From positions 1 through 34,480 of the forward strand of contig DYMC01000001.1 of the NCBI GenBank assembly GCA_020721745.1: a stretch of 34,480 bases of DNA. The letters run 5' to 3'. The notes below the pieces were generated by a model. That model worked only from the letters and a program-made list of their open reading frames with translations, ran no database searches and had not been told where the DNA came from. The translations under genes and the position numbers were made by a program. Shown here piece after piece: positions 8,606 through 25,030 of this stretch; position 1 is the stretch's first letter; the number at the start of each line of letters is the position of its first letter. The DNA is from Lentisphaera sp. (GTDB lineage: Bacteria > Verrucomicrobiota > Lentisphaeria > Victivallales > GWF2-50-93).

Positions 8606-8615
8606 GGAGATGAAC

Positions 8616-9146
8616 ATGGAACACGTGATGATTGACCTTGAGACCCTGGGCCGCCGCGCTGGCTGCGCCATCCTGTCCATTGGGGCAGTGGCCTTCGACG
8701 CCAAGGCCAAGGAGCTGGGTCCTGAGCTGTACACGGTCGTGCGCCTGGACAGCTGCGAGAAGGCAGGCCTGCACATCGACCCGGACACGATCGCTTGGTG
8801 GGAGAAGCAAAACCCCGAGGCGCAGAAGGTCCTCAAGCAGGCACGAGCTGCCAGTGGCAACAAGGTGCTGCCCGAGGCGCTGGAGGAGCTAACCAAGTAC
8901 CTCAGCCAGTTCGACCTCAAGAAGGTCAAGGTCTGGGGCAACGGATCGGACTTCGACAACGCCATCCTCACGGCTTGTTACGCCTCCGTCGAGAAGCCAC
9001 TGCCGTGGGAGTTCTGGAACAACCGCTGCTACCGCACGTTGAAGAGCCTGAAGCCGTCGATCAAGATGCAGCGCCAAGGCACCTGCCACAACGCGTTGGA
9101 CGATGCCAAGTCTCAGGCCTTCCACGCAATCGAGTTGCTGGGGTGA
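8616..9146 (+). CDS. DEDDh 3'-5' exonuclease (DnaQ / Rv2179c-like)
   Basis: MIDLETLG (Exo I), GNGSDFD (Exo II) and HNALDDA (Exo III, DEDDh). gaggag RBS at 8604-8609. The in-frame ATG at 8610 is an alternative start. Confidence 0.85.
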   Translation: MEHVMIDLETLGRRAGCAILSIGAVAFDAKAKELGPELYTVVRLDSCEKAGLHIDPDTIAWWEKQNPEAQKVLKQARAASGNKVLPEALEELTKYLSQFDLKKVKVWGNGSDFDNAILTACYASVEKPLPWEFWNNRCYRTLKSLKPSIKMQRQGTCHNALDDAKSQAFHAIELLG

Positions 9147-9149
9147 CCA

Positions 9150-9341
9150 ATGGTAGATGAAATTGATCGTCAGCTGGAGTGTGATGAGGTACTTGAAGCC
9201 GCGTGGGTGAAGAAGATACGCGAGCAGGCCAGTCAGATGCCAGCAGGGCGGCCAGGCGACTGCGATCTTTGCGGCGAGTGGTCAGCAAGGTTGGTCAACG
9301 GTGTCTGTGCTCCATGCCGTGACAGACACAAGCTGCCATGA
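9150..9341 (+). CDS. TraR/DksA-type C4 zinc-finger protein
   Basis: CDLCGE...CAPC arrangement near the C-terminus, 63 aa. ATGA overlap with the next gene. Confidence 0.7.
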   Translation: MVDEIDRQLECDEVLEAAWVKKIREQASQMPAGRPGDCDLCGEWSARLVNGVCAPCRDRHKLP

Positions 9342-9712
9342 GGCAGCTGGAAAGCAAGATCGAGCAGGACGCCTGCGACCTCGTGTGGAAGCACCTCGGG
9401 ATCATAGGTTCCAAGCTCGTTACGCCGGGCGACACGGGGTACCCAGACAGGATCTTCTGGCTGCCCGGTGGTCGTCCGTTGTTGATTGAGTTCAAGCGAC
9501 CTGGGGAAGAACTTGCGCCCAAGCAGATTTACATCCACACCCAGCTGAGAAAGTTGGGCTACCAAGTTGAGGTACATGACAATGCAATCCGAGCTTTTCA
9601 AGCCGTCATCGAAGCCGTGGCAACCACACGCCTATCAAAAGAAAGCCGTCAAGTTCTTGCTCGAGCACGACGCATCTGCGCTGTTCTTAGATCCGGGGTT
9701 AGGCAAGACTAG
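9338..9712 (+). CDS. VRR-NUC domain nuclease
   Basis: GYPDRIF...LLIEFKRPG...KQ...L..LGYQV pattern (PD...E.K active site of VRR-NUC). The 3' end overlaps the SNF2 gene by ~135 nt. Confidence 0.8.
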   Translation: MRQLESKIEQDACDLVWKHLGIIGSKLVTPGDTGYPDRIFWLPGGRPLLIEFKRPGEELAPKQIYIHTQLRKLGYQVEVHDNAIRAFQAVIEAVATTRLSKESRQVLARARRICAVLRSGVRQD

Positions 9713-11051
9713 TATCACGCTGGCCGCCATCAAGCTACTCAAGCAGAAGAAGCTGCTGGACAAGGTCCTGCTGATCGCTCCGCTCCGCGTCTGCTACAGC
9801 GTGTGGCCCAAGGAGGTCGAGAAGTGGGAGGACTTCAGCGGCATCCGTGTCTGCGTCCTCCACGGGCCGAACAAGGACGCGCTGCTCAAGACCGAGGCTG
9901 ACGTCTACGTCATCAACCCCGAGGGCCTTGAGTGGCTGCTGCAGGTTGAGAAAACCAAGACTGCCCAGGGTAAGACCAAGGTCAGCGTGGATATGCGCCG
10001 CTGGAAGCAGCTGGGTTTCGACACGCTGGTCGTTGACGAGCTGTCCAAGTTCAAGCACACGAACACCAACCGCTTCAAAGCGTTGAAGCTGGTGCTCAGC
10101 ACCTTCCGCCGCCGCTGGGGTCTGACAGGCTCGCCGGCATCGAATGGCCTGATGGACTTGTTTGGCCAGTGTTACATCCTTGACCAAGGTCGTGCGCTAG
10201 GTCAGTACGTCACCCACTATCGGATGAAGTATTTCGTGCCTAGCCATGACGGCTTCAGCTGGAACATCAGAGAAGGTGCCGAGCAAGAGATTTACGAGCG
10301 CCTGAACCCGCTCGCTTTGCGCATGGCGGCTGACGATTACCTCGACATGCCCACCTTGATCGAGAACAACATCCGGGTGGACCTGCCTGAGAAGATCATG
10401 GAAATGTACGACCGGCTTGAGAACGACCTGATCGCCAAGCTCGATGCCAAGGTTGTCGTGGCCAGCACAGCAGCGGCGGCTTCCATGAAGTGCAGGCAGG
10501 TGGCCAACGGCGGCATCTACCTCGATCCTGAGGTTGAAGCCCTGGTCAAGTTGCCCAAGTCCAAGCGTGAGTGGGTGAACCTGCACACTGAGAAAGTCGA
10601 TGCGCTGGCCGATCTGATCGAGGAGCTGCAGGGCTCACCCATTCTCGTGGCTTACGACTTCGAGCATGACCTCGATCGGCTCCGTGAGCGGCTGGGCAAG
10701 GACGTGCCCTACATCGGCGGCGGCGTGACGGCCAAGCGCTCGGCTGAGCTGGAGAAGGCGTGGAATGCTGGACACCTGCCTGTCTTGCTGGGGCATCCTC
10801 AGGCCATGGCCCACGGTCTGAACCTGCAAGAGGTGGGCAACCACGTCTGCTGGCACTCACTCACCTGGGACTACGAGCTCTATGATCAGTTCATCCGCCG
10901 GGTGCTGCGGCAGGGCAACAAGAGCAAAAAGGTCTTCGTGCACCACATCATGGCTCGTGGCACGATTGATGAGGCGATCCTAGCGGCTGTGAAGTCCAAG
11001 CGTCGTGGTCAGAATGCTCTGTTTGATGCGCTCAAAAAATTGCGCAAATAG
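9576..11051 (+). CDS. SNF2/DEAD-like superfamily 2 helicase
   Basis: HAYQKKAV, Walker A-like DPGLGKTS, DELSKFKH (motif II), and C-terminal helicase motifs (HPQAMAHGLNLQ, QFIRRVLRQG). The start may be 9582 (gagg RBS at 9569-9572). Confidence 0.9.
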   Translation: MTMQSELFKPSSKPWQPHAYQKKAVKFLLEHDASALFLDPGLGKTSITLAAIKLLKQKKLLDKVLLIAPLRVCYSVWPKEVEKWEDFSGIRVCVLHGPNKDALLKTEADVYVINPEGLEWLLQVEKTKTAQGKTKVSVDMRRWKQLGFDTLVVDELSKFKHTNTNRFKALKLVLSTFRRRWGLTGSPASNGLMDLFGQCYILDQGRALGQYVTHYRMKYFVPSHDGFSWNIREGAEQEIYERLNPLALRMAADDYLDMPTLIENNIRVDLPEKIMEMYDRLENDLIAKLDAKVVVASTAAAASMKCRQVANGGIYLDPEVEALVKLPKSKREWVNLHTEKVDALADLIEELQGSPILVAYDFEHDLDRLRERLGKDVPYIGGGVTAKRSAELEKAWNAGHLPVLLGHPQAMAHGLNLQEVGNHVCWHSLTWDYELYDQFIRRVLRQGNKSKKVFVHHIMARGTIDEAILAAVKSKRRGQNALFDALKKLRK

Positions 11052-11064
11052 TTGAAAATAGGTG

Positions 11065-11093
11065 TTTACAAGTCCATTGCGCCGCGCTAGAAT
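11065..11093 (+). promoter_or_regulatory. Sigma70-like promoter (TTTACA-N17-TAGAAT)
   Basis: tttaca at 11065-11070, a 17 nt spacer, and tagaat at 11088-11093, in the 85 nt gap after the SNF2 gene. Confidence 0.65.
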
Positions 11094-11136
11094 CTAATCA
11101 CGGTCACACATCGACCGGACTTGCTGAGGAACCATC

Positions 11137-11538
11137 ATGACCAAGACCACCCAAGCTGACGCCGTCAAGTTCTACGCCCGCCGCGACTCCGCCACCGCGG
11201 TGCTCCGCAAAATGGGCGTCCACGCCCGCGACTACAACGCCTTCATCGAGGTGATGAGCGACGGCCAATTCGCCTGCCACATCGCTCGTGCTGAGATGTA
11301 CCTCGAGTCCCTGAAGAACCCCAAGCCTGCTGAGACCAAGGCCGCCAAGGCTGCGCGCCCCGCTGCTGGGACCAAGCGGACGGGCATCTCCGCTACGGCC
11401 CGGGCCCTGATCCTGGCCGGCAAGACCAACCAAGAGGTGTGGGCTGAGCTCAAGCAGCAGTTCGATCTTGACGATTCCAAGAAGCACTACCCCACGTGGT
11501 ACCGCTGCGAGATGAAGCGTAAAGGCCAGTTGGTCTAA
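11137..11538 (+). CDS. Hypothetical protein with an Ala/Lys/Pro linker and a conserved C-terminal domain (paralog of 11903-12544)
   Basis: C-terminal ISATARALILAGKTNQEVWAELKQQFDLDDSKKHYPTWYRCEMKRKG aligns by eye with the C-terminus of the 11903-12544 product. Confidence 0.7.
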   Translation: MTKTTQADAVKFYARRDSATAVLRKMGVHARDYNAFIEVMSDGQFACHIARAEMYLESLKNPKPAETKAAKAARPAAGTKRTGISATARALILAGKTNQEVWAELKQQFDLDDSKKHYPTWYRCEMKRKGQLV

Positions 11539-11548
11539 GGTGTCCGTC

Positions 11549-11677
11549 ATGAAAGTACGCGTCCATTATCGTGACGGCCGGGCCGTCGATTTCGTAGTGC
11601 ATAAGGACATCCTCGTTGTTGATTTCGCTGCGATGGCGAAGGTGCACGGCCAGATTCGTCGGATCGAGTTCCTATGA
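11549..11677 (+). CDS. Small hypothetical protein (42 aa), not in the supplied ORF track
   Basis: My translation: MKVRVHYRDGRAVDFVVHKDILVVDFAAMAKVHGQIRRIEFL. aagg lies 8 nt upstream. ATGA overlap with the next gene fills an otherwise empty gap. Confidence 0.4.
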   Translation: MKVRVHYRDGRAVDFVVHKDILVVDFAAMAKVHGQIRRIEFL

Positions 11678-11913
11678 TCAGCGATCCCAATAGCATTGAG
11701 ATTCGCGACGAGAGCACCGACGAGGAGCAGCGCTTCCAGCTCTACATCAATGGCGGTCCTCGCGCAATGCTCAGCAAGAAGCATGGCACCGTGCAATTCC
11801 ACTGGCAGGTCTACGGCCCACAATACTGGCCTGGGGCCAAGGTCCTGATGCAGGGCCTGCTGGAACTGTCGGTGCTGGCTGATCAACTATATGGAGAGAA
11901 GAATGGCAAGTAA
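11674..11913 (+). CDS. Hypothetical protein (79 aa)
   Basis: ORF coupled to both neighbours. No motif recognised. Confidence 0.6.
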   Translation: MISDPNSIEIRDESTDEEQRFQLYINGGPRAMLSKKHGTVQFHWQVYGPQYWPGAKVLMQGLLELSVLADQLYGEKNGK

Positions 11914-12544
11914 AAAACCAACGCCGGGCATCATCCCGTGCTATGACCGCCAGCGCCGCACCTGCATTCAGGTTGAGCGGACTGACACCCACGTGAAGTA
12001 CATCCCGCTCGACGTCAATGAGGGCCTGCAGGTTTTGACGGCGGCGGCAAACGAGTTCGACCAGTGGTATGAGCCGATGGTCAACTACCCCGCAGAGAAG
12101 GCGTGTCAGTTGTTCCTCAACTACAGCCAGACCATCGGGGCAACCAAGGAGGCCTTGGGTTACCTGGGCCAGATTGTTAACGTGTCTAAACAGGAGGCCG
12201 ATATGGCAACCACCAATAAGACTGCGGCGACTGAGAAGGCTGCCGCCACCAAGACCGCTGCGAAGAAGGTAGCTCCCGCAAAACCTGCCGCAAAATCTGC
12301 CGCCAAGACGGCTCCGGTCAAGACAGCTAAGCCTGCTGCAAAACCAGCGGCCAAGACTGGCGAGAAGAAGACGTCTGCAGCCCAGATGTTCCAAGACCTG
12401 ATCATGCAGGGCAAGCTGACTGACGACCAGATTTTCGAGAAGGTCCAAGCTCAGTTCGGTCTGGATGAGAAGAAGCGCGGGTACACAAAATGGTATCGGA
12501 ACTATCTCAAGAAACAAGGCATGAATCCTCCTGAGGCAAAGTAG
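11903..12544 (+). CDS. Histone H1/AlgP-like protein (KPAAK-type repeats) sharing a C-terminal domain with 11137-11538
   Basis: ATG at 11903 follows ggagag. Low-complexity TAAKKVAPAKPAAKSAAKTAPVKTAKPAAKPAAKT is followed by SAAQMFQDLIMQGKLTDDQIFEKVQAQFGLDEKKRGYTKWYRNYLKKQG. An in-frame internal ATG at 12203 has an aggagg RBS. Confidence 0.7.
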   Translation: MASKKPTPGIIPCYDRQRRTCIQVERTDTHVKYIPLDVNEGLQVLTAAANEFDQWYEPMVNYPAEKACQLFLNYSQTIGATKEALGYLGQIVNVSKQEADMATTNKTAATEKAAATKTAAKKVAPAKPAAKSAAKTAPVKTAKPAAKPAAKTGEKKTSAAQMFQDLIMQGKLTDDQIFEKVQAQFGLDEKKRGYTKWYRNYLKKQGMNPPEAK

Positions 12545-12647
12545 ATAACCAGCTGTTCAATCTTGAACGGTGTACGGCCTCTGAAAAAAACTCACTCCAC
12601 GCCTATAGAGTATTGGGTGTGGGCAACACACGAAAGAGGTAATCATC

Positions 12648-13460
12648 ATGGCCAAATCCAAAGAAGTTTCACGCGACTCCCGCGACTACGACACCACCCA
12701 GCTACGTGAGGCAGGCCACGGCCGCACGCTTCACAGAGATTATTCCGCACATTTTTTCCGCTGGAGCTTTGCCCGCCGCTTCATCTCGGCCAAGGACAAC
12801 GTCCTCGAGGTCGGCTGCGGCGAGGACAAGCCGCTCAGCAAGATCCTGACTGGCGGAGCTGCTGCTCACGTTGGCCACTACACCGGCGTGGATCTGAACA
12901 AGCTCAAGCCGTCTAACAACCAGCGTCTGGAGTTCCACGGCGAGTTCAACTTCGTCGAGCGCTACAAGGAGTTGCTCAAGAAGCGTCCCGAGGGTTGGGA
13001 TGTCGTCGTTAACTACGAGGTCATCGAACACATGAAGGTCGAGCACGGTGCCAACCTGCTCAAGGCCATGTTCGCCTGCACCAAGCCGGGCGGTGTCCTG
13101 CTGCTCTCGACCCCGGTCTACGATGGCAAGCGCCACGCGGCCAACCACATCCACGAGTACACGGTGCCTGAGCTGCAGAGCTACATCGAGAAGGCTGGCT
13201 ACGTGGTCGAGCGCCGTTTCGGCACGTTCATGGACATCAAGCACATCGGCAAGGCCGACCCCACCGGCTGCAGCAAGGCGGCTGTGCTGGAGATTCGCAA
13301 GGCTTTGGAGCAGTACTTTGACAACGACGCCATCAGCAACATCTTTGGCCCGCTGTACGAGGACCATGCTCGCAACAACCTCTGGGTCTGCCGCAAAGCC
13401 GCTGACGGCAAGCCGGTCAAGCCTGCTCGCAAGACCACCACGAAAGGAGCGCCGTTCTGA
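12648..13460 (+). CDS. Class I SAM-dependent methyltransferase (small-molecule/UbiG-like type, not a recognisable DNA MTase)
   Basis: Motif I VLEVGCGEDKP, an acidic post-I residue (GVDLN), NYEVIEHM, and a KPGGVLLLSTP motif. No DPPY or PCQ DNA-MTase motifs. Confidence 0.85.
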   Translation: MAKSKEVSRDSRDYDTTQLREAGHGRTLHRDYSAHFFRWSFARRFISAKDNVLEVGCGEDKPLSKILTGGAAAHVGHYTGVDLNKLKPSNNQRLEFHGEFNFVERYKELLKKRPEGWDVVVNYEVIEHMKVEHGANLLKAMFACTKPGGVLLLSTPVYDGKRHAANHIHEYTVPELQSYIEKAGYVVERRFGTFMDIKHIGKADPTGCSKAAVLEIRKALEQYFDNDAISNIFGPLYEDHARNNLWVCRKAADGKPVKPARKTTTKGAPF

Positions 13461-13858
13461 TGATTGGCAATGTCGCTGAGTTCCACGAAAAGTTCGGCCT
13501 CCCTATGGGGGCTGTTGATCAACTCATGAACGACCCGGCAGCTCAGGAGTTCCGGGTCAAGTTCTTGCAAGAGGAGCTAGACGAGCTCAAGGAGGCGCTC
13601 GCCGAGGGCAACCGCGTGAAGGTGTTCGACGCTCTGCTGGATCTGGTCTACGTAGCCTACGGCACGGCGCTGTTCGCTGGCATCGATGCAGCTCAGTGGC
13701 ACGCTGGCATGGACGCCGTCCACTCGTGCAACATGGCCAAGGTCCGTGTGGCCAAGGCTGAGGACAGCAAGCGGGGCAGCGCCTTCGATGTCAAGAAGCC
13801 GGAAGGCTGGACTGGCCCCGAGGCGCGCCTGGAGGAGATTCTGTCATGGACCAAGTGA
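13460..13858 (+). CDS. MazG/HisE-like all-alpha NTP pyrophosphohydrolase (candidate dCTPase/dUTPase)
   Basis: LQEELDELKEAL (EExxE) and FDALLDLVYVAYG metal-binding helices. 132 aa. TGATG overlap with the methyltransferase gene. Confidence 0.8.
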   Translation: MIGNVAEFHEKFGLPMGAVDQLMNDPAAQEFRVKFLQEELDELKEALAEGNRVKVFDALLDLVYVAYGTALFAGIDAAQWHAGMDAVHSCNMAKVRVAKAEDSKRGSAFDVKKPEGWTGPEARLEEILSWTK

Positions 13859-14757
13859 GCTGCAAGCTGACGATCTTCGAGGGCCCGGACGGTGGCGGCA
13901 AATCGACTGCCGCCCAGTCCTACGCCCAGATGACCGGCGCCAAGTACGTGCACTTCACCTCGCTGCCTCGCGTCGGCAAGAACCTCGGCCGCATGTACGT
14001 CGAGGCCATGATGCCGGCGCTGCTTGGCTACCAGGACGTGGTCTTCGATCGCTGCTGGCTGAGTGAGATGCCGTACGGCGTCGCGTTCCGTGAGGGCAAG
14101 GATCGCTTGACGTCGGCCAGCCGCCGGATGCTCGAGCGGCTGGCCATGCGGTGCGGCGCTGTTGTGGTCAAGTGCCAACCCAGCTGGGAGACCGTCAAGG
14201 CCAACTACCTCAGCCGCAAGCACATCGAGATGCTGGACAACGAGTACCAACTCAAGACGGTCTACGACCTCTATGCTGAGCAGCCGACGGACTTGCCCTT
14301 GGTGGACTACGACTACACGAGGGGCGACCTGTTCGAGGTCAACAAGGTGGCTCTGCTGATCGATGGCCTGCGTATGCGCCAACACCCGCTTGGTCTGGCC
14401 TCGGCTGGCAACTGGGACGCCCGGATCGTGCTGATCGGCGAGTCGTTTGCTGAGCGCGAGGACAACGATCCCTGGTACCAGTGGCCCTTCGCCTCGTTCA
14501 GTGACGAGGGTTGCAGCCAGTGGTTGGCCGACCAACTGGACCTGATCGAGGTTGGCGAGGACGACATCCTCTGGCTGAACTCCGATCAGGACCTGTCCGT
14601 GCTGTATGACCTGGCGCCTGAGCGCATCATTGCCATGGGCACGGAGGCCTACCAGCAGCTGTACAAGCTCAAGATCAAAGCCGCTTCGGTCCAGCATCCC
14701 CAGACCTGGAAGCGCTTCAACTTCAAGCAGCGCTACCCGTTGCTTGACCTCATCTAA
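13846..14757 (+). CDS. Fusion: thymidylate-kinase-like P-loop dNMP kinase (N-terminal) + degenerate uracil-DNA-glycosylase-superfamily domain (C-terminal)
   Basis: The N-terminus has LTIFEGPDGGGKST (P-loop) and FDRCWLSEMPYG (TMK DR motif). The C-terminus (~aa 175-303) has IVLIGESFAERED...WPFAS...GCSQWL, resembling the family-4 UDG motif A (GEAPG..E...G.PF.G..G..L), and SVQHPQTW, resembling motif B (HPS). Confidence 0.75.
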   Translation: MDQVSCKLTIFEGPDGGGKSTAAQSYAQMTGAKYVHFTSLPRVGKNLGRMYVEAMMPALLGYQDVVFDRCWLSEMPYGVAFREGKDRLTSASRRMLERLAMRCGAVVVKCQPSWETVKANYLSRKHIEMLDNEYQLKTVYDLYAEQPTDLPLVDYDYTRGDLFEVNKVALLIDGLRMRQHPLGLASAGNWDARIVLIGESFAEREDNDPWYQWPFASFSDEGCSQWLADQLDLIEVGEDDILWLNSDQDLSVLYDLAPERIIAMGTEAYQQLYKLKIKAASVQHPQTWKRFNFKQRYPLLDLI

Positions 14758-14767
14758 GGAGAACAAC

Positions 14768-15553
14768 ATGCAAGACTTTTCACGCACTTGGCTTGAGGCC
14801 GTCAACGACATCTTGACCAACGGTGACCTCGTGGCACCGCGCGGCAAGATGACCCGTGAGATTCCGCAGCGCACCATCGTGGTGAACATGCGGAAACCCG
14901 TGCTCCGCGTGCCCGACCGCAGCCTGAGCTACAAGTTCATGGCGGCCGAGGCCTTCTGGATCCTGACTGGTGACGACCGGGTCGAGACGATCGCCCCGTA
15001 CAACAGCCGCATCAAGGACTTCAGCGACGACGGCGAGCGCTTTTTCGGCGCCTACGGCCCCAAGATCGTGGCCCAGCTGCCCTACATCATCGAGAAGCTG
15101 CGGGCCGATGAAAACAGCCGCCAAGCTGGCCTGACGATCTGGCGCGAGTGCCCGCCCCAGACGAAGGACGTGCCCTGCACGGTGGCCATCTTCTTCAACC
15201 TCCGTGGCGGCAAGCTCAATGCCCACGTGTTCATGCGGTCGAGCGACGTCTGGCTGGGCGTTCCCTACGACGTCTTCAACTTCAGCATGCTGAGCCACCT
15301 CGTCTGCGGCCTGCTGAATGGGCACCGACTGGCCGCTGATGCCGTGTCGCCTGGCAGGCTGTTCCTGACGGCGGCCAGTAGCCACCTGTACGAGACCAAC
15401 TGGGAGGACGCGAAGCTGTGTCTGGCCAGCCAGGTGCTCGATCAGGTTGAGACGCCCAAGCTGCTGTGGAACGACCCGGCCTACCTGATGTCGGAGCTCA
15501 AGATGATCCGTGACAGTCGGCCGGGTGACGCCTGCCGTTGGTGGGAGCTGTAA
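14768..15553 (+). CDS. ThyA-fold pyrimidine C5 hydroxymethylase/methylase, predicted dCMP-specific (T4 gp42-like)
   Basis: aaggag RBS. Catalytic Cys in VPCT (codon at 15176-15178). FMRSSDVWLGVPYDVFN aligns with E. coli ThyA YQRSCDVFLGLPFNIAS. Asp (15269-15271) replaces the dUMP-specifying Asn. SSHLY matches DTHLY. Confidence 0.8.
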   Translation: MQDFSRTWLEAVNDILTNGDLVAPRGKMTREIPQRTIVVNMRKPVLRVPDRSLSYKFMAAEAFWILTGDDRVETIAPYNSRIKDFSDDGERFFGAYGPKIVAQLPYIIEKLRADENSRQAGLTIWRECPPQTKDVPCTVAIFFNLRGGKLNAHVFMRSSDVWLGVPYDVFNFSMLSHLVCGLLNGHRLAADAVSPGRLFLTAASSHLYETNWEDAKLCLASQVLDQVETPKLLWNDPAYLMSELKMIRDSRPGDACRWWEL

Positions 15554-15554
15554 C

Positions 15555-16022
15555 ATGAGACCCAGCCGCGACGAATGGGCCCTGAAACTGGCCCTGCTGA
15601 CTGCCCAACGAACGACCTGCCGCCGCCGAGCAGTTGGCTGCGTGCTGCTGAACGCTCGTGGCCACGTGCTGGCCACCGGGTACAACGGCGTCGCGGCTGG
15701 CCTGCCTCACTGCAACCACCATGACCCGTACTCCGAGACGGGGTTCCCCCACGCCTGCTCAGGAGCCAACTCACCGAGCGGGACGAACCTCGACGGCTGC
15801 CAGGCGATCCACGCTGAGCAGAACGCTATGCTCCAGTGCAAGGACGTCTACAGCATCCACACGTGCTACGTGACGACCAGCCCGTGCATGACCTGCGTCA
15901 AGCTGCTGCTCAACACCAGCTGCGAGAGGATCGTCTTTGTGGAGGAGTACCCGCACTCGGCGGCTCGGGAGCTCTGGGCAGGCACCGGACGGGCCTGGGA
16001 GCAACTTCTTGTGGAGATTTGA
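15555..16022 (+). CDS. dCMP deaminase (zinc-dependent cytidine/deoxycytidylate deaminase fold)
   Basis: HAEQNA and SPCMTCVKLL zinc-binding motifs. ATG lies 1 nt after the stop of the upstream gene. Confidence 0.9.
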   Translation: MRPSRDEWALKLALLTAQRTTCRRRAVGCVLLNARGHVLATGYNGVAAGLPHCNHHDPYSETGFPHACSGANSPSGTNLDGCQAIHAEQNAMLQCKDVYSIHTCYVTTSPCMTCVKLLLNTSCERIVFVEEYPHSAARELWAGTGRAWEQLLVEI

Positions 16023-16060
16023 TCCAACTTGACCTTCAGGAATGACCCGAGGGATCACGA

Positions 16061-16104
16061 AATGGCTTAGCCCATAACTTCCTATGGTCTAAGCCATTCT
16101 TTTC
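16061..16104. terminator. Hairpin terminator at the convergence point of the two arms
   Basis: aatggcttag (16061-16070) pairs with ctaagccatt (16089-16098). The inner ccata/tatgg pairing extends the stem. cttttc follows on the + strand, and the upstream gaaa gives a short T tract on the - strand. Confidence 0.75.
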
Positions 16105-16133: not shown

Positions 16134-16553
16134 TTACTTCGTAGCGCCGCGGACCTTCTCCCATGACCGTCCTGCGACGTAGCCAGTCATCACGACACCA
16201 AAGAGGGTTAGCACGGGCTCTGGGATGGCCAGCATCCAGGCCTTGAACCCGTCCGTGAAGGCGGCCGCAGCCTCTGGCCGGAAGATGGTCAAAATACCCA
16301 TCGGGATGCTCCACAAGAGTATCACGTAGACCACATACAGGAACGACGGTCTGGCTCGGCTGGTCCAAGGGTCTGCGGACTTGGCTTCGGCAATGATGGC
16401 GCTGAGCTGCGTCTTCATCTCGTCCAGGTCACCTGACTGCTGCATCTTGAGCAACTCCAGTTGGGCCTTCGCCTTCTGTTCAGGGTCTGGGAATATCTTG
16501 TCAATGAGCTTGGTTCCAATGCTGAAGATTCCGCTGAGTGTGACCGGGTCCAT
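16134..16553 (-). CDS. Holin, 3-TM GTA-type family (DUF3154-like)
   Basis: Start MDPVTLSGIF... The N-terminal LIDKIFPDPEQKAKAQLELLKMQQ and W.S.ARP motifs plus C-terminal hydrophobic helices fit the GTA-type 3-TM holin family. TAATG overlap with the endolysin gene. Confidence 0.7.
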   Translation of the reverse strand: MDPVTLSGIFSIGTKLIDKIFPDPEQKAKAQLELLKMQQSGDLDEMKTQLSAIIAEAKSADPWTSRARPSFLYVVYVILLWSIPMGILTIFRPEAAAAFTDGFKAWMLAIPEPVLTLFGVVMTGYVAGRSWEKVRGATK

Positions 16554-16936
16554 TATGGGTACTCCTTCCAAGGTAATTGCCAATGTGGTCCGTCTTTGAA
16601 CGTCGCCCAATCGCCTCCCCACTCGACTGGTATCTGTAACTCAGCGGCGGCCTGCTTGACGGCAACAGCAAGCTTGTGGTAAAGAGGCCAGTCCCAGCGA
16701 ACTGAGCCGGCCACGTAAGCACCGAGATCGACGGCATGACCAGTCAGGTGGCGCGATCGCATGGTCTGACTGGCGCCCGCCTTGACGAGTTGCTCTTGGC
16801 GAGTCTTGGAGCGAACTCCTTCGAGCACGACAAAGTCAATCTCAGTGATCTCAATGGCGCGTTCAACAACCTTGACGAGGTCCGGGTGAACCCCAGCAAG
16901 GCGGTCTCGCGACTTTTTGCTGAGGGTGTAGATCAT
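16553..16936 (-). CDS. Endolysin, peptidase M15 family (L-alanyl-D-glutamate / VanY-like zinc peptidase)
   Basis: SRHLTGHAVDL (H..D zinc ligands) and DGPHW motifs. 127 aa. Confidence 0.85.
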   Translation of the reverse strand: MIYTLSKKSRDRLAGVHPDLVKVVERAIEITEIDFVVLEGVRSKTRQEQLVKAGASQTMRSRHLTGHAVDLGAYVAGSVRWDWPLYHKLAVAVKQAAAELQIPVEWGGDWATFKDGPHWQLPWKEYP

Positions 16937-17187
16937 CTTTTGTCCGCCTTCTTGTCAATCTTGTCTTCAATTTTGTCGAGCTTGGCAAACAGTGTGGTCA
17001 TATGGGACATAAATTCATCCTTCTTGACGTAGTCGCCAGCCACCAAGATCTCAATCTCAGAGACCTTCTTCGTGAGCTCCTTGTCAGTAACCTGCAGGTC
17101 CTTGACAGATTGCCAAACTGCACTGAGCAAGAACCCGATGAGAGTTCCGAGGCCACCTAGCAGCCAATTTATAAGTGTTTGGTCCAT
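16933..17187 (-). CDS. Membrane protein with one N-terminal TM helix and a coiled-coil C-terminus (holin/antiholin or i-spanin-like)
   Basis: Start MDQTLINWLLGGLGTLIGFLLSAVW with a ggggag RBS. The C-terminus is charged and helical. ATGA overlap with the endolysin gene. Confidence 0.6.
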   Translation of the reverse strand: MDQTLINWLLGGLGTLIGFLLSAVWQSVKDLQVTDKELTKKVSEIEILVAGDYVKKDEFMSHMTTLFAKLDKIEDKIDKKADKR

Positions 17188-17305
17188 TCCCAGTCTCCCC
17201 TTCTTTATCACGCGTTAGTTCTTGAGTTACTCCGCACCAGTTGCATTCCTCGCCGTCTTCAACGTCAAGCAAGCACTTTTCGGAATTACAGTAGTGAGTC
17301 CACAT
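17084..17305 (-). CDS. Small Cys-rich hypothetical protein (possible zinc ribbon) overlapping the next gene
   Basis: Strong RBS aaggag 6 nt before the ATG at 17305. The N-terminus has C-x4-C-x9-C-x2-C (YCNSEKC...ECNWC). The last ~100 nt overlap the gene at 16933-17187 in another frame. Confidence 0.4.
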   Translation of the reverse strand: MWTHYCNSEKCLLDVEDGEECNWCGVTQELTRDKEGETGNGPNTYKLAARWPRNSHRVLAQCSLAICQGPAGY

Positions 17306-17328
17306 TATTAGCTCCTTGTTATCGATTC

Positions 17329-19350
17329 TTACCAGGTAATTGCATCTTTATTGTAGCGCAGCCACGCGCGGCAGATTCTGTCCTTGTTACCAGCATCTGT
17401 AGTGAATCGCGCTATGCTACCATCTATGTAAGCCAAAGTCATGGGCAACGATTCGCCGCTGTTACCTTTGTAAAACGCGGCAGCAGCCATCACGTAGCCG
17501 CCCCCATTCGCTGTGCCATGTGAAATATCAAAATTGCCCGATGCATCAACAACCCCACCATATTCGCATTCGACATACACGTCTCCGTGCCGTGTTAGTG
17601 GTGAGTTTACGACCTTATTCATGCAGTTGAAGAACTTGTTACTATCCAGAACGTCATTGGCAAACCAGCCGACCAGGTTCTGCAAATAGATGGCATTGCC
17701 ACAGGATACGAAATTATTTTCACTGATCGTAACTTCCGTGGATGTTGCGCCAACCACAACAGCCCCCTGATCGGCAGCTTGCAAGCCAAGAGTCAGAGTG
17801 TTTCCTGTTACCCGCACTCCTGTTGAGTTCCGAATAAGTAAGCGGCGTCCAAAGGCCGTGTTGTTGGCAATAAGACCGTAGCTGCTAGCAAAGTCAGCCC
17901 AGCTTCCGCCAGCTTCAGCATAAGTACCGGCGTTCACGGCGTTGCCGATGACCTGAACATTCTCAATGGCACCAACTACGATGTCTGTGCCAGCGTTATC
18001 GTGGAGAGTGTTGCTGCCGATAATCACATATTTGCATCCACCAATTGAGATGCCAATCCCATCGCCAACCGACCCGTCATGATCTGTACTGCCACAGTTA
18101 TAGATTGTGTTACCAACGATCGTGACATAGCCCGTCCAGCCATCATCGCTGCCATCATATCGTATCCCAGAGCGTTTACACTTAGCCACAGTGTTGCTAA
18201 CTATCTTAACGTTCCGGGGCCCTTTTCTTCCTTTATATGCAAACCATCCCATGTTGATGCCGTCGCCGCAAGCAACAATTTCATTACTGGAGATTAGTAA
18301 CGTGTGATCCTGATTAGCGTCTGTACCTTCCGGCCCTGCACCTACCCCAAGATCGCATTTATAAATGTAGTTGCCAACGATGCAGCCGCGCGCATCGTTA
18401 TTAAATGCGATGCCACCATCACCGCTATTTTTTGCCGTGTTGCCAGTTACAATAAAGTAGCCGTTGTTGAAGTTGTAAATGTCACCACCGCATTGTTCGG
18501 TATAGTTCCCACTGACGTAAGCCTCACCGTAATTTAACTGTATCGAGTGCATGCGTTGCCCAAGGTTTGTAGGGATGTTCAAGAATCGGTTGTTTGTGAT
18601 ACTCAACCCAGACATCGTCCCAGATGTGGTCGCAGAAGATATGCAGGCAGCTTCACCCATTGGAGAACCTTCTGTTACGAGTCCTGAAGCATCAAATGTT
18701 ATGCCGTGGATGGTGCTGTTTGCCGAACCGTCTGGGATGTAAATTTGATAATATGACCCAGATTTGGCTTTCAAAGTCCCACCATCTCCAACAAGACCTA
18801 CGCCAGATGGTAATGTGACAGTCCCGGCCGTGATAGTTTTACCTGACAAAGATAACCACTTGTGTCCAGAATTCAGCGCCGCTTGCAGATATGCAGTCTC
18901 ATCAGAACCATCGCCCTTAACACCAAAATCACACACACTGACAACATCAGCATTTTTCTCATGCTGCGTTCTGGCAACGCCACCAGGCAATAGTGACTTG
19001 ACTCCAACCAGGGCGTCGCCAAGAGTTTGGTTACTAGTATTTGATAAATCAGAGAACAGGGGAGGAACTGATGGCGCATAGAACACTACACGCTTGTTTT
19101 TGTCGGCGACGATAATGGAAAAATCCATTACAGCTGTAAACACTCTAGCCGGAGTTCCGTTGCGCACAATGTAGCCATTTGACGTACGAAGAGGTTGTGC
19201 TGCAGGCAGTGTACCAGCCTCATCCCAGAAGACGGCGATGGGGTTGGTCTCAGGGTTCTGGCCGGCAGCGCCAATGTAGATATTGCCGTCGTCAAGAGGA
19301 CCTCCCTCAAGACCAAAAAACTGCTGAAATGGCGACTGAACTTGAAACAT
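17329..19350 (-). CDS. Tailspike / tail fibre with a pectate-lyase-type right-handed beta-helix (probable polysaccharide depolymerase)
   Basis: 673 aa. VSVCDFGVKGDGSDETAYLQAAL is the Pectate_lyase_3 signature. Repetitive Gly/Asn/Ile-rich beta-helix coils follow. The N-terminus (~80 aa) resembles conserved tailspike head-binding domains. Confidence 0.85.
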   Translation of the reverse strand: MFQVQSPFQQFFGLEGGPLDDGNIYIGAAGQNPETNPIAVFWDEAGTLPAAQPLRTSNGYIVRNGTPARVFTAVMDFSIIVADKNKRVVFYAPSVPPLFSDLSNTSNQTLGDALVGVKSLLPGGVARTQHEKNADVVSVCDFGVKGDGSDETAYLQAALNSGHKWLSLSGKTITAGTVTLPSGVGLVGDGGTLKAKSGSYYQIYIPDGSANSTIHGITFDASGLVTEGSPMGEAACISSATTSGTMSGLSITNNRFLNIPTNLGQRMHSIQLNYGEAYVSGNYTEQCGGDIYNFNNGYFIVTGNTAKNSGDGGIAFNNDARGCIVGNYIYKCDLGVGAGPEGTDANQDHTLLISSNEIVACGDGINMGWFAYKGRKGPRNVKIVSNTVAKCKRSGIRYDGSDDGWTGYVTIVGNTIYNCGSTDHDGSVGDGIGISIGGCKYVIIGSNTLHDNAGTDIVVGAIENVQVIGNAVNAGTYAEAGGSWADFASSYGLIANNTAFGRRLLIRNSTGVRVTGNTLTLGLQAADQGAVVVGATSTEVTISENNFVSCGNAIYLQNLVGWFANDVLDSNKFFNCMNKVVNSPLTRHGDVYVECEYGGVVDASGNFDISHGTANGGGYVMAAAAFYKGNSGESLPMTLAYIDGSIARFTTDAGNKDRICRAWLRYNKDAITW

Positions 19351-19361
19351 ATGGACTCCTT

Positions 19362-21260
19362 TTATTCACCGAGAGCCCGCTTGACGCGGGCGCGAGTTTT
19401 CGCATCTTTGATGCTTTTTGTTGCCAATCGAAAGCTTGTCATGATTGGTGCAGGCACACCCGCCGTGCCACTGATGGCGATGTCCATCATGCCTGCAAGC
19501 ACGCTGGCCGTGTTGCTTGTATTGACCGCGCCAGCCGGAGTAGTAAGCACGTCCTTGGCCACGTCGTTGATGGTGCGTAGCTGTTCAGCGCCTTTCTTGC
19601 CGAACACAAAGTCGAGCTTGCCAGATTTGTCGAGCTGGGTGATAACGCGGTCGAGCTGCGCTGGCGACAAGACGGCATTGCCAAGCTCATCACGGCCCAC
19701 GCCCTTGGTGGCCTCGTCACGTATGAACTTGAGCGTACCGCCTTGCAGTTCCTTCCAAGCTTGCCGGCCATTCTGCCCCTCGGTCTGAAGCAGCCGGCGA
19801 ACTTGGCGGACCGTATCAAGCGACGTCGATGGGTCGATGACTGCGCGGCGAAGCACGTCTTCCATGGCTATGGCTCTATCATTAGAGCCGCGCTTCTGGC
19901 CAAGCAGGTTCTTCACCAGACCGATGTTCTCGTAGTCGTTGGCAAACCGAGCACGTGCTGCACGAGCCTGCTTGTACAAGTTGCCGCCCAGACCTTCGGT
20001 CGATGCGTCGATGAGGCTGCGCATCTGAGAAGCTTGCATGATGTTGGTCGGCTCAGCGTTGGTGGCACCGCTAATCGAGCGACGGAACAACTCAGCCGTC
20101 TTCAACGAGACAGGTCGGGCAATCAATGTGCCATCAGGCGCCTCAATGGCTACACCAAGCTGCAGAGCTTTAGCTCGAGCTGCCTTGAGCACATTGGCCA
20201 CCTCAGCTTCAGGCGCGTTGTCAACCAGATGCTGAACCACGGCGTCGAGTTTGACAGGGGCTTCCATCTCGCCGGCCTTCTCAGCCTCTTTGTACAAGGT
20301 GCGGATGCGCGTCTTGTCACGGGCTGCCCGGTCACGCAGCGCCTTGTCCACGGCCAGGCCTATGGAGCGCAGGTCAGGAGCCTCAGCTCCAGTCATGTCA
20401 ATGAAGGCCTCGAGGTTCTGCTGAAGCTGCTTATTCTGGATGGCAAAGCGCTCGCGGATGGGCGCCCCAACCTCAGGTAGCTTGGCGGTCTCGCGCTCAA
20501 AGCGCTGCTGCTCGAACTGACGAGTCTTCTGGCCTTCAGTCAGCTTGATGGGCACTGGCAACTCATTGGCCTTAGCTTGGCGCAGAGTAGCCATGTCCAC
20601 ACCAGCTGAACCGCCAGATGCCTGGGTGCCAGGGGTTGGGCTCTTGGAAGTTGCGCCAGGCATCATCTCACGAATCGGCTCAGTAACTTTGGCCGCGACC
20701 TGACCGGCTCGCTTGGTGGCAGCCACAACAGGAGCTGCGACACGACCGGCAGTTGCCGCCACCGCTGGCTGCGCCATCTTGGCACTAGTAGAGACGGCTC
20801 CGATAGGTCCAACAACTGGGATGACAGGAGGGACGTTCTGGAGCACTTCGCCGACGGCTTGTACTTGCTCCTGACCTGACTGCGTGCGGGGCGTGTAGGT
20901 CAGTGCCTGAGCTCCTTGCATGGCTGACTTCTCAACTAGGCTGGCCGCTTCTCGGCTGCCGAACTGGCCAGACAATATCTGCTCGGCCAGACCTTTCAAC
21001 GCGCCGGCGATCATGCCAATTGTTCCGCCAGTGGCACCAGTGCCAATTGTCAGGGCAGCTTCACCAGCGCCGACAATCTTCTCACCAAGGGATGGCTCAA
21101 CGTACTCTTGGGTCGTGCCAGGCACAATCATGTCTGGTATCTGGTTTTTGGGATCTTGGCGAGCCTTGACAAGCACGGCAGCCAAGCGTCGAGCGGCATC
21201 AAGGTCACCCGCCTTGTCGGCGTTGACCAAGGCCAGCTCAAGTTCTTGGAGTGTTGCCAT
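19362..21260 (-). CDS. Internal virion / DNA-ejection protein (large, P22 gp16/gp20-position analog)
   Basis: 632 aa, Ala/Gly/Gln-rich. Assigned by its position between the other ejection-type genes and the tailspike in a P22-like gene order. Confidence 0.6.
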   Translation of the reverse strand: MATLQELELALVNADKAGDLDAARRLAAVLVKARQDPKNQIPDMIVPGTTQEYVEPSLGEKIVGAGEAALTIGTGATGGTIGMIAGALKGLAEQILSGQFGSREAASLVEKSAMQGAQALTYTPRTQSGQEQVQAVGEVLQNVPPVIPVVGPIGAVSTSAKMAQPAVAATAGRVAAPVVAATKRAGQVAAKVTEPIREMMPGATSKSPTPGTQASGGSAGVDMATLRQAKANELPVPIKLTEGQKTRQFEQQRFERETAKLPEVGAPIRERFAIQNKQLQQNLEAFIDMTGAEAPDLRSIGLAVDKALRDRAARDKTRIRTLYKEAEKAGEMEAPVKLDAVVQHLVDNAPEAEVANVLKAARAKALQLGVAIEAPDGTLIARPVSLKTAELFRRSISGATNAEPTNIMQASQMRSLIDASTEGLGGNLYKQARAARARFANDYENIGLVKNLLGQKRGSNDRAIAMEDVLRRAVIDPSTSLDTVRQVRRLLQTEGQNGRQAWKELQGGTLKFIRDEATKGVGRDELGNAVLSPAQLDRVITQLDKSGKLDFVFGKKGAEQLRTINDVAKDVLTTPAGAVNTSNTASVLAGMMDIAISGTAGVPAPIMTSFRLATKSIKDAKTRARVKRALGE

Positions 21261-22555
21261 TAGTGGGCTCCTTGGGTATACTTCTTGACAAGCGCATCGA
21301 TGTCGGCACCAGAAGTGCTCACGGCAGGCGTGTCAGGGATGGTCTCAGGCATGCCTGACCGCGCGGTCAAGTTTTTGCGTGCCTTTATAATCAAACGCTG
21401 GGCCTCTCTGACGTTCTCGAGCAAACGCTCAGGAGACTGCTTCAAGCTGAAGTTCTGCAGAGCAGCTTGGAGCTTCTCGCCTTCAGCGTTAGACAGTGCG
21501 CCCATGCCCTTGATGATGGGTATCTGGGCCATGAACGACTGTGAGCCAAGCGTCTCAACCAGAGCCTCGAAGTCAGCCGTGTCCTGTCTGAGTGTGGGCA
21601 TGCGCGACGACACTGGGCCGGCAGCTGAATCAACCACGCCAATCGGCGTCTTCAGGATGCGGTCAGCCGTGTTGAGCATATTGTCCATGCTCGCGCGGGC
21701 GGCCTCAAGGTCAGCTGCCTTGGCGCGTACAGCCTCATCCCGTTTCTGGATCATGTCTTGCAACTTAAGTTGGTATTCCTCGCGCTTAATCTGGTTGCTC
21801 TCGCGAGCGATCTGGGCGTTGAGAGCGGCGATTGAAGCATTCTGTTTGGCGATCTTGATGTCCTCTTGTATCTTGGTGATGTCCCAACCTTTTTTCTGCA
21901 GGTCAAGCACGGCGTTGGCCTCGGCGAACTTGGCGCTGATCGCCGCTTTCTGGGCCTTGGCTTGTGACTCAGTCAGCTTCGACGGGTGGAGCTCAGCATC
22001 ACGCTGCTCACCTTGGAGCTTGGTGAACGTCTCGACGAACTTGTCAGGACCCATGGCCGAAGCAAGGAAGAGACCGACCGAGGTCTTCGCCGTCTCAGGG
22101 CTGATCTTGATCAGCATGCCCAGGTCCTCAAGCGTCTTGGCTTCACGCTCTTGGCCTGAGTTGCGGTAGGCCGCAGCTTGGTCAGTCAGCAGCTGCTGGG
22201 CGATCTCAGGCTTGTTGGATTGGAGTGCGGCGTAAACCTGCGTGGCTTGGCCCAGACGTGAATCCTTCTGCTCGGTGCTCAGCACGTCATAGGTGCGCTT
22301 GAAGCTCTCGCTCAGGCTGGGGTACTTGACCATCATGCTGGCCAGAGCCGACGGTGTCGGGTTCTTGGACAGAGCGCCAAGGTCAATCTCCATCTGGGCC
22401 TGTGTCTCACGAGCTTTCTGCAGGTCGAGGGCTTTCTGCTCGGCCAGGTTTCGCTGCGACATCATGTAGCCGATGTTGAGTGCATTTTGAATGCCGTCCA
22501 TGACCGACTGAGTCGGGTCAGGGACGTTGAGCATGTAGTTGAATGGTTGTGCCAT
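21260..22555 (-). CDS. Internal virion / DNA-ejection protein (coiled-coil rich)
   Basis: Start MAQPFNYML 2 nt after the upstream stop. 431 aa with long coiled coils. TAATG overlap with the next gene. Confidence 0.6.
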   Translation of the reverse strand: MAQPFNYMLNVPDPTQSVMDGIQNALNIGYMMSQRNLAEQKALDLQKARETQAQMEIDLGALSKNPTPSALASMMVKYPSLSESFKRTYDVLSTEQKDSRLGQATQVYAALQSNKPEIAQQLLTDQAAAYRNSGQEREAKTLEDLGMLIKISPETAKTSVGLFLASAMGPDKFVETFTKLQGEQRDAELHPSKLTESQAKAQKAAISAKFAEANAVLDLQKKGWDITKIQEDIKIAKQNASIAALNAQIARESNQIKREEYQLKLQDMIQKRDEAVRAKAADLEAARASMDNMLNTADRILKTPIGVVDSAAGPVSSRMPTLRQDTADFEALVETLGSQSFMAQIPIIKGMGALSNAEGEKLQAALQNFSLKQSPERLLENVREAQRLIIKARKNLTARSGMPETIPDTPAVSTSGADIDALVKKYTQGAH

Positions 22556-22557
22556 GG

Positions 22558-24053: not shown

Positions 24054-24137
24054 CACTTCACTCCTTGGTGGGACTTGTGAGCTGCTGGCGGCTCGAGTCT
24101 CGGCTCAGCTGAGATGGTATCTGCCATGAATCTATAG

Positions 24138-24167
24138 AAAAAAGCGAACCACTTTAGGTGATTTCGC
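24138..24167 (-). terminator. Rho-independent terminator on the - strand (the stop codon of the 111-aa gene lies in the loop)
   Basis: On the - strand: gcgaaatcac / gtggttcgc stem (9 bp with a 1 nt bulge), ctaaa loop containing TAA, then tttttt. Confidence 0.65.
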
Positions 24168-25028: not shown

Positions 25029-25030
25029 GG

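Follow-up and report, generated by a model that had tools for sequence, protein, structure and literature searches.

What does a phage do with a thymidylate synthase-like enzyme that lacks the residue by which thymidylate synthases recognise their substrate? The question is raised by a stretch of 34,480 nucleotides from Lentisphaera sp. (NCBI GenBank assembly GCA_020721745.1, contig DYMC01000001.1, positions 1 to 34,480, forward strand), which represents phage DNA and is referred to here, at its full length, as the window. At 14768–15553 on its + strand lies an open reading frame (ORF) for an enzyme of 261 residues with the fold of ThyA. An original prediction, made from the sequence alone, held that this enzyme carries Asp at the position of the Asn that specifies deoxyuridylate (dUMP), and that its substrate is deoxycytidylate (dCMP). 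The enzyme is probably a phage deoxycytidylate 5-hydroxymethylase, belonging to a separate ThyA-fold lineage and serving a T4-like, pre-replicative pathway to 5-hydroxymethylcytosine (5hmC). As far as can be judged from its sequence, the product is most likely 5-hydroxymethyl-dCMP (5hm-dCMP), and the cytosine of the virion DNA is probably replaced by a modified base.

The gene starts with an ATG that follows, after 6 nt, an AAGGAG ribosome-binding site read directly from the sequence (14756–14761, +). The upstream gene ends at 14757 and the next one starts at 15555, one base on. A longer reading frame from 14606 was dropped, as it overlaps the upstream gene and finds no support among the homologues, which are 258–266 residues long. 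The 261-residue protein matches the PF00303 (Thymidylat_synt) profile over positions 2–235 of 266, at E 1.4e-21 and 77 bits against a cut-off of 24.3, and its closest sequence match in the PDB is the CMP 5-hydroxymethylase MilA (5b6d, E 9e-16). The NCBIfam thymidylate synthase equivalog models all score far under their cut-offs. The catalytic set is intact (R25, E61, Y96, R118, C137, R157, S158, D160, H206 and Y208), with C137, E61, Y96, R157, H206 and Y208 as the equivalents of the catalytic Cys, Glu58, Tyr94, Arg166, His207 and Tyr209. A megablast search with 13400–16100 against 50,697 phage records gave no match, so relatives are visible at the protein level only.

The choice of pyrimidine in enzymes of this fold depends on position 177 (E. 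coli numbering), with Asn selecting dUMP and Asp dCMP. Mutational switches between the two are cited in PMC8670742 and PMC13326640, and the D179N form of the T4 dCMP hydroxymethylase loses both dCMP binding and activity (PMC6400193). The literature agrees with the premise of the original prediction, that exchanging Asn and Asp here switches pyrimidine specificity. In the window enzyme the position is occupied by Asp168, encoded by GAC at 15269–15271 (+). A HMMER comparison with the PDB entry 7ta9 aligned 'SSDVWLGVPYDVFNF' to 'SADVFLGVPFNIASY', with Asp168 opposite the thymidylate synthase Asn. A MAFFT alignment of the query with 13 reference enzymes placed Asp168 in the same column as E. coli Asn177 and Asp179 of T4 gp42, and two further MAFFT runs again set it opposite the Asn of thymidylate synthase. 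In the alignment T4 gp42 is numbered D145, C148, D179 and Y96, which are the published numbers and show the register to be right. The residue and codon picked out by manual alignment in the original prediction were thus recovered in every run, and the comparison with ThyA, T4 gp42, SPO1-type and Xp12-type enzymes found Asp, not Asn, at the specificity position.

The residue is strongly conserved. Every one of the 120 homologues that share 69% identity or more has Asp in the 177 column, as do about 148 of the 150 sequences chosen to represent 50%-identity clusters (41–74% identical to the query) and each of the 137 IMG/VR loci scored; because it is kept across homologues in this way, Asp168 can be taken as neither chance nor sequencing error. 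All of the dCMP enzymes in the alignment (T4 gp42, RB69 gp48 and those of Xp12, AXL1 and PaMx74) have Asp177, and Asn177 is found in the dUMP hydroxymethylases SPO1 gp29, Sonora and PAKlein3 and in E. coli ThyA. The earlier assignment of dCMP as the likely substrate therefore gains support from the aligned reference enzymes and the literature, and, by analogy, from the restriction resistance of the related phage AXL3 described below.

The original prediction considered that the product, 5-hydroxymethyl- or 5-methyl-dCMP, could not be read from the sequence. This has been overtaken by published diagnostics at positions 143 and 169, which predict 5hm-dCMP. At position 143, methylating thymidylate synthases have Leu, whereas hydroxymethylases have an acidic residue, Asp or Glu, which correlates with a hydroxymethyl product (PMC13326640). 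The T4 counterpart, Asp145, activates a water molecule for attack on the exocyclic methylene, and a D145N mutant makes no 5hm-dCMP (PMC6400193). The flavin-dependent 5-hydroxy-dCMP synthases, RB69 gp48 and DLP3 gp80 among them, are recognised by Asn in place of Asp at position 169 (PMC13326640). Finally, Ser and Arg at positions 167 and 126 denote a deoxyribose substrate, whereas MilA, which prefers ribose, has Ala and Lys (PMC5175136). In the window enzyme Asp134 (GAC, 15167–15169, +; E. coli Leu143, T4 Asp145) is found within the motif KDVPC, three residues before the catalytic nucleophile Cys137 (TGC, 15176–15178, +; E. coli Cys146), which forms an invariant alignment column. Asp160 (15245–15247, +; E. 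coli Asp169) is retained, so that the D169N change of the 5-hydroxy-dCMP synthases is absent, and Ser158 and Arg118 are of the deoxyribose type, in place of the Ala and Lys of the ribo-type enzymes MilA and BcmA. It is the presence of Asp134, the retention of Asp160 and the absence of the Asn/Pro/Leu pattern of Xp12 that point to 5hm-dCMP as the product.

These residues can be summarised as a signature, read at E. coli ThyA positions 143/146/147/165/169/177. Reference genes were taken from annotated records and comprised T4 gene 42, RB69 gp48, SPO1 gp29 and the enzymes of Xp12, AXL1, PaMx74, Xp15, Sonora and PAKlein3. The signature is D-C-T-M-D-D in the query and in AXL3, PW916, ctUtU524, ct3Et533 and HTVC200P, and also in T4 gp42 and in the Xp15 enzyme, which adjoins a carbamoyltransferase. 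RB69 gp48 has E-C-T-M-N-D, the 5-methylcytosine (5mC) phages Xp12, AXL1 and PaMx74 have N-C-P-L-D-D, the dUMP hydroxymethylases SPO1 gp29, Sonora and PAKlein3 have D-C-N-N-D-N and E. coli ThyA has L-C-H-Q-D-N. The canonical ThyA residues Asn177, Leu143, His147, Gln165 and Trp80 are thus represented in the query by Asp, Asp, Thr, Met and a gap, and from the SPO1 gp29-type set (Asn at 177, 147 and 165 together with Asp143) only Asp143 is present. The likeness of the PCT and MRS motifs to T4 gp42, which the original prediction had noted, also holds, as gp42 has MCT and MRS and ThyA has PCH and QRS. The complete gp42 pattern was found in 139 of 150 diverse representatives.

Some members of the family depart from this picture. 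Two rare members, P0290 and P0376 (6001–6855 of locus L020), have Asn143 and Leu165 (NCTLDD), mimicking the pattern of the Xp12 methylase. The two positions seem to change together, Asp143 being paired with Met165 and Asn143 with Leu165. The contig of P0290 is too short to inform on context, and no DHFR (dihydrofolate reductase) gene was found within 6 kb of the variant in L020, so that the hoped-for link within the clade between N143/L165 and DHFR was not obtained. The representatives P0242, P0257, P0268, P0276, P0326, P0336 and P0386 are fusions of 425–540 residues with an extra domain of about 170–270 residues, which in several of them is N-terminal and about 200 residues long.

The ThyA-fold gene is the fourth of a tightly packed cassette of five, all on the + strand. 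The first (12648–13460) encodes a Hen1-like, metal-dependent O-methyltransferase using S-adenosylmethionine (PF13489, E 1.7e-14; NCBIfam bacterial Hen1 model TIGR04074, E 1.5e-8, far under the model cut-off). The second (13460–13858) is a nucleoside triphosphate (NTP) pyrophosphohydrolase of the MazG/PRA-PH type (PF01503, E 3.8e-12; phrog_671, nucleotide pyrophosphohydrolase), and the third (13846–14757) a P-loop deoxynucleoside monophosphate (dNMP) kinase, spanning residues 1 to ~170, joined to an alpha/beta domain at residues ~180–303 (phrog_761, thymidylate kinase, E 7e-16). The fifth (15555–16022) is a dCMP deaminase with the zinc motifs HAE...PCxxC (PF00383, E 1.4e-19), which is 53% identical to the deaminase of Xp15. 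The pyrophosphohydrolase is presumably a dCTPase that supplies dCMP and the dNMP kinase a 5hm-dCMP kinase, in which case the pyrophosphatase, kinase and deaminase would reproduce the T4 logic of gp56, gp1 and cd.

On this basis a reaction and a pathway can be proposed, in which the fold, the residues with their conservation and the linkage of the genes are established by the analysis, and the substrate, the product, the parts played by the neighbouring genes and the make-up of the DNA are inferred. Cys137 would attack C6 of dCMP, Asp168 would recognise and protonate the N3/N4 face of the cytosine, and the one-carbon unit of methylene-tetrahydrofolate would be passed to C5. Asp134 would then activate a water molecule to hydrate the exocyclic methylene, in place of its reduction by the folate hydride, giving 5hm-dCMP and tetrahydrofolate. 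With tetrahydrofolate as the product a DHFR would not be needed, whereas one is expected for a reductive methylase, because that reaction produces dihydrofolate. Pfam scans of all ORFs of at least 90 residues found no DHFR, ThyX or second thymidylate synthase in the window. The MazG-type pyrophosphatase would convert dCTP to dCMP, both removing dCTP and feeding the enzyme, and the dNMP kinase would phosphorylate 5hm-dCMP. The deaminase would divert part of the dCMP to dUMP for the synthesis of dTMP by the host (by ThyX in AXL3 and PW916). Finally, the family A DNA polymerase would incorporate 5hm-dCTP, such that the virion cytosine would become 5hmC or a derivative of it, protecting the DNA from restriction.

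The same cassette is found in the phages AXL3 and PW916, in the Manatee Spring phage ctUtU524, in the podovirus ct3Et533, where the ThyA-fold enzyme is 46% identical, in metagenomic contigs of about 14–40 kb and in a 67-kb contig of another lineage. The family is large, with at least 595 IMG/VR relatives and 603 cluster representatives at E ≤1e-30. Its neighbourhoods were scanned from both ends of the cassette. The enzyme scan took, from these relatives, the 67 best IMG/VR loci in which 4 kb or more of sequence precedes the gene, and found the D-C-T-M-D-D signature and a dCMP deaminase in all 67, an NTP pyrophosphatase in 63 and the methyltransferase in 57. The methyltransferase scan took IMG/VR loci in which 3 kb or more of sequence follows the gene (n=70), and in every one a ThyA-fold gene lies 3' of the methyltransferase, at a median of 1.3 kb, is 40–93% identical to the query and has the D-C-T-M-D-D signature; the pyrophosphatase is present in 67 of the 70. 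Genes matching PF18723, the helical domain of 5-hydroxymethyldeoxyuridine (5hmdU) DNA kinase (HMUDK), occur in 5 of the 10 enzyme-scan loci that have no methyltransferase (L162, at 12–1079 with E 5.7e-29, and L171, L179, L180 and L182) and in none of the 57 that do, a mutual exclusion resting on 10 loci in a sample that is small and skewed to the closest relatives. Because this kinase family phosphorylates the 5-hydroxymethyl group in DNA, its presence beside an Asp177 enzyme is a further, indirect sign that the clade makes a hydroxymethyl product. By analogy with thymidine hypermodification, it suggests that 5hmC may be hypermodified after replication in those phages.

Experimental information on the DNA of such phages comes from AXL3, whose DNA was exposed to 37 restriction enzymes, each with a site in the genome. 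Only TasI (AATT) and Tru1I (TTAA) cut, and all 35 enzymes with G or C in their site were resisted (PMC7504290). The authors concluded that G or C is modified, did not name the base and annotated gp28 as a thymidylate synthase despite the presence of ThyX (PMC7504290). A search of the literature for AXL3 together with hydroxymethyl found no prior identification of the base. The 5mC DNA of Xp12 is cut by KpnI and AhdI (PMC7653180), and AXL1, an Xp12-like phage examined in the same laboratory as AXL3, is partially cut by KpnI and by Eam1105I, an isoschizomer of AhdI (PMC9206674). Both KpnI and AhdI are resisted by the 5hmC DNA of T4gt (PMC7653180, Table S1) and by AXL3 DNA (PMC7504290). Across the panel AXL3 and T4gt are near-identical, the sole differences being XbaI and XmnI/PdmI, with which T4gt is partially cut and AXL3 uncut. 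Such a pattern favours 5hmC, or a bulkier base, over plain 5mC.

The relationship of the enzyme to the known groups was examined with a neighbour-joining tree (40 sequences, 256 columns, Kimura distances, 200 bootstraps). This resolved four groups, namely the large clade that contains the query, the dUMP hydroxymethylases (96%), a group of T4 gp42, RB69 gp48 and Xp15 (80%) and a group of Xp12, AXL1 and PaMx74 (99%). The phylogeny called for by the original prediction therefore separates the query from the Xp12-type enzymes and from the dUMP hydroxymethylases, but does not group it with T4 gp42. The clade is a lineage of its own, gp42-like in its residue logic and outside the T-even gp42 clade.

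A number of points weigh against a dCMP hydroxymethylase. The position of the query clade outside the gp42 group is one, and since the deep nodes have less than 50% bootstrap support, no conclusion follows on which known group is its sister. Moreover, the equivalent of T4 Ser94, two residues before the catalytic Tyr and expected to be Ser or Thr, is Gly94 (GAY) in the query, and GAY is also found in the Sonora and PAKlein3 homologues, which have a dUMP-hydroxymethylase signature and stand in contexts of the thymidine-hypermodification type; the feature does not discriminate, however, because the Xp12 methylase has SAY and Sonora and PAKlein3 have GAY. The rule at position 143 is a correlation together with a single T4 mutant, and the rationale that a bulky hydrophobic residue excludes water is incomplete, as Xp12 has Asn143. 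Furthermore, ThyX is absent from the window, unlike in AXL3 and PW916, and an Xp12-like production of dTMP by deamination of 5-methyl-dCMP would fit with this. The AXL3 evidence would apply to the window phage by homology, and restriction data cannot tell whether the base is 5hmC or a bulkier derivative nor, strictly speaking, whether guanine is the modified base instead.

The main rival is a dCMP methylase of the Xp12 type, which would convert dCMP by reductive methylation to 5-methyl-dCMP (5mdCMP) and replace cytosine by 5mC, with the deaminase making dTMP or dTTP from 5mdCMP or 5mdCTP. Asp168 fits with such an enzyme, as does the lack of an own ThyX or ThyA, a feature shared with Xp12, and the same neighbourhood of thymidylate synthase homologue, deaminase and PRA-PH surrounds MetaGPA homologues of which 5 out of 7 tested make 5mdCMP (bioRxiv 2024.12.05.627091). 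Ordinary thymidylate synthase, when it carries the mutation N177D or N229D, is also described as a dCMP methylase. Nevertheless, this option looks improbable given the D/T/M residues of the query, the lack of a DHFR, the resistance of AXL3 to KpnI and AhdI, a deaminase only 25% identical to that of Xp12, and the HMUDK-like genes of sister cassettes, which need a hydroxymethyl group to act upon. Further down the scale, and very unlikely, is an enzyme that uses dUMP supplied by the neighbouring deaminase, either an ordinary thymidylate synthase, as AXL3 and JGI (Joint Genome Institute) labels have it, or a dUMP hydroxymethylase, as in the label of PW916. These annotations, the marginally highest overall identity, which is to SPO1 gp29 (31%), and the TKD-PC motif common to dUMP hydroxymethylases speak for it. 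However, the reading as an ordinary thymidylate synthase was dropped because four active-site positions differ (L143D, H147T, Q165M and N177D), three differences separate the enzyme from the dUMP hydroxymethylases (N147T, N165M and N177D), and D179N costs the T4 enzyme its dCMP binding. Moreover, AXL3 and PW916 already encode ThyX, and the resistance of AXL3 tracks sites containing G or C, whereas 5hmdU DNA resists only about 8% of enzymes. Hardly worth entertaining is a flavin-dependent 5-hydroxy-dCMP synthase of the RB69/DLP3 type, feeding glycosylated 5-hydroxycytosine. It would share with RB69 gp48 both Asp177 and an acidic residue at 143, but was rejected because the Asp169 equivalent is kept, in the query and in all homologues, and no glycosyltransferase or sugar-nucleotide genes were found in the window by Pfam.

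A further alternative extends the hydroxymethylase pathway rather than replacing it. 5hm-dCMP, or 5hmC, might only be an intermediate that the Hen1-like methyltransferase tailors, for instance by O-methylation to 5-methoxymethylcytosine; this is a tentative idea, more doubtful than not. The methyltransferase is the most conserved gene of the cassette, with 72% identity to AXL3 gp31 against 54% for the ThyA-fold enzyme, and ct3Et533, a distant podovirus, has an orthologue of 31% identity in the corresponding place. Its constant linkage to the D-C-T-M-D-D enzyme, and its apparent alternation with the HMUDK-like gene, hint that 5hmC could be tailored further. The only N143/L165 variant with a context, that of L020, has no methyltransferase, and AXL3 DNA is slightly more resistant than that of T4gt, at XbaI and PdmI/XmnI. 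A profile of 30 family members matches the PDB entries 3jwg and 3jwi at E 3e-5, structures of the Hen1 methyltransferase domain of Clostridium thermocellum, and 3JWG is cited in a Hen1 context (PMC10781085). The invariant E124-V-I-E127-H128 and the His of HAANHIHEY superpose on the EVIEH ... HRDHRFEW of Hen1, a metal-ligand motif that in plant HEN1 (Glu796, Glu799, His800 and His860) binds the Mg or Mn holding the acceptor hydroxyls and is described as exclusive to HEN1 (PMC10781085). Against this, Hen1 enzymes methylate the ribose 2'-OH of the 3'-terminal nucleotide of RNA, with the metal binding a vicinal diol, and a 5-CH2OH group is a different acceptor. A structural model of the methyltransferase (predicted local distance difference test, pLDDT, 72.8) retrieves in Foldseek only generic class I small-molecule methyltransferases, with TM scores of ~0.5, so that the substrate does not follow from the fold alone. 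Co-occurrence does not show it either, and RNA or a metabolite is possible. A full-text literature search for 5-methoxymethyl, bacteriophage and cytosine found no such phage base. In a broader and slightly more speculative form, which we would regard as rather unlikely, the O-methyltransferase would modify the hydroxymethyl group (e.g. to 5-methoxymethylcytosine) or another nucleotide hydroxyl, as an alternative to the HMUDK-like kinase, and AXL3-like phages, together with related P22-like ones from the environment, would contain an undescribed cytosine derivative. To our knowledge, the Hen1-like family is so far known only for the 2'-O-methylation of RNA 3'-ends.

The kinase of the cassette has a feature of its own. 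Its AlphaFold model (pLDDT 87.9) gives YorR (3kb2) and thymidylate kinases as top Foldseek matches, and its C-terminal alpha/beta domain, of about 125 residues, is well predicted and has the invariant motifs YQWPFASF..GCS and HPQ. No characterised match to this domain was found, the Foldseek search of solved structures having used the full-length, kinase-dominated model rather than the domain alone. Structural matches to the full-length fusion in BFVD are uncharacterised viral proteins only, including gp315 of Bacillus phage G. A resemblance by eye to the family-4 uracil-DNA-glycosylase fold was unsupported by phmmer, or by a 32-sequence profile, against PDB sequences. The ct3Et533 kinase lacks the domain.

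The window itself is a phage of two modules. The + strand from 1 to 16022 is an AXL3-like replication and nucleotide module, with a primase (59% identity to AXL3), a family A DNA polymerase (66%), a RecB-type nuclease (52%) and an SNF2 helicase (64%). On the - strand, from 16134 to 34298, are the lysis genes and a morphogenesis module of P22 type, consisting of coat (PF11651), portal (PF16510), gp4, gp7, gp10-like and a beta-helix tailspike with a P22 head-binding domain. The genome is thus a mosaic, in which P22-like morphogenesis is joined to a replication and nucleotide module resembling that of the siphovirus AXL3. Just 5' of the cassette, at 11891–12544 (+), is a gene for a 217-residue protein with a lysine/alanine-rich, histone-H1-like stretch (weak NCBIfam matches, and no Pfam match at E ≤0.001), which is kept in most related loci (AXL3 gp32). 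Among the ejection-protein genes, a 285-residue ORF at 23199–24056 (-) has a weak match to the SET domain, PF00856 (E 4e-5, 24.4 bits, cut-off 22.4). SET domains are protein lysine methyltransferases.

The assignment has consequences for annotation. AXL3 gp28 (5977–6786 of locus L003) is labelled a thymidylate synthase, as are many metagenome copies at JGI, and PW916 ORF60 (3280–4098 of locus L001) a deoxyuridylate hydroxymethyltransferase, and both labels conflict with Asp177 and Asp143. With ThyX present in AXL3 and PW916, a second thymidylate synthase would also be redundant. The reassignment would correct the label of a phage gene that is very common in the environment. It would also account for the resistance to restriction of PW916 and of AXL3, a candidate for phage therapy, by cytosines that are probably 5hmC or a derivative. 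Such a base matters for the sequencing, cloning and engineering of these phages, and for their predicted sensitivity to modification-dependent nucleases. Moreover, a predicted dCMP hydroxymethylase lineage apart from the T-even phages offers a natural test of the diagnostics at positions 143, 169 and 177, and the Hen1-like methyltransferase linked to it gives a starting point in the search for what may be a new DNA base.

The kind of system proposed is well known, both from the T-even phages and from the MetaGPA homologues with Asp177 that lie beside a deaminase and a PRA-PH protein. With T4 gp42 (PDB 1B5E family; ternary complex in PMC6400193) the window enzyme shares the ThyA fold, the catalytic Cys, the Asp pairs D179/D168 and D145/D134, the Thr after the Cys, the MRS motif and the Asp169 equivalent, and the two phages have in common the companion activities of NTP pyrophosphatase (gp56), dNMP kinase (gp1) and dCMP deaminase (cd). 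The proteins are nevertheless only 22% identical, fall into separate clades and differ at T4 Ser94 and at the equivalent of E. coli Arg127, which is Gln in the query as in SPO1 gp29. In T4 the pathway genes are scattered, whereas in the window they form one tight cassette without glucosyltransferases, in what is a P22-like podovirus of ~35–40 kb with a family A polymerase. The dCMP methylases of Xp12 and PaMx74 also have Asp177, with a dCMP deaminase directly 3' and a nucleotide hydrolase 5', but are set apart by N143/P147/L165, by an identity of 27% and by their own clade; in Xp12, AXL1 (directly after) and PaMx74 (after a short gap) a DHFR lies just 3' of the thymidylate synthase homologue and deaminase. 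The SPO1 gp29-type enzymes, including those of Sonora and PAKlein3, have the highest overall identity (28–31%) and the motif TKDxPC with Asp143, but have Asn at 147, 165 and 177 where the query has Thr, Met and Asp.

The MetaGPA homologues (Yang et al. 2021, PMC8670742; bioRxiv 2024.12.05.627091) share with the window a PF00303 protein with Asp177, PF00383, PF01503 and a family A polymerase, a neighbourhood that statistically marks phage contigs with modified cytosine and in which columns 177 and 147 are the top discriminators (PMC8670742, bioRxiv 2024.12.05.627091). Those studies differ in having followed up carbamoyltransferase and 5mC-selective deaminases. In them we found no account of a cassette that includes a Hen1-like methyltransferase ('Methyltransf' is absent from the eLife text), and since Xp15 is absent from the MetaGPA paper, its 5hmC or carbamoyl status would follow only from its carbamoyltransferase gene. 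The closest likeness is with AXL3 gp28 and PW916 ORF60, which are 54–56% identical to the window enzyme (AXL3 54%) and belong to the same cassette of five genes. AXL3 and PW916 are siphoviruses with ThyX and a ligase, whereas the window phage lacks both and has a P22-like morphogenesis module.

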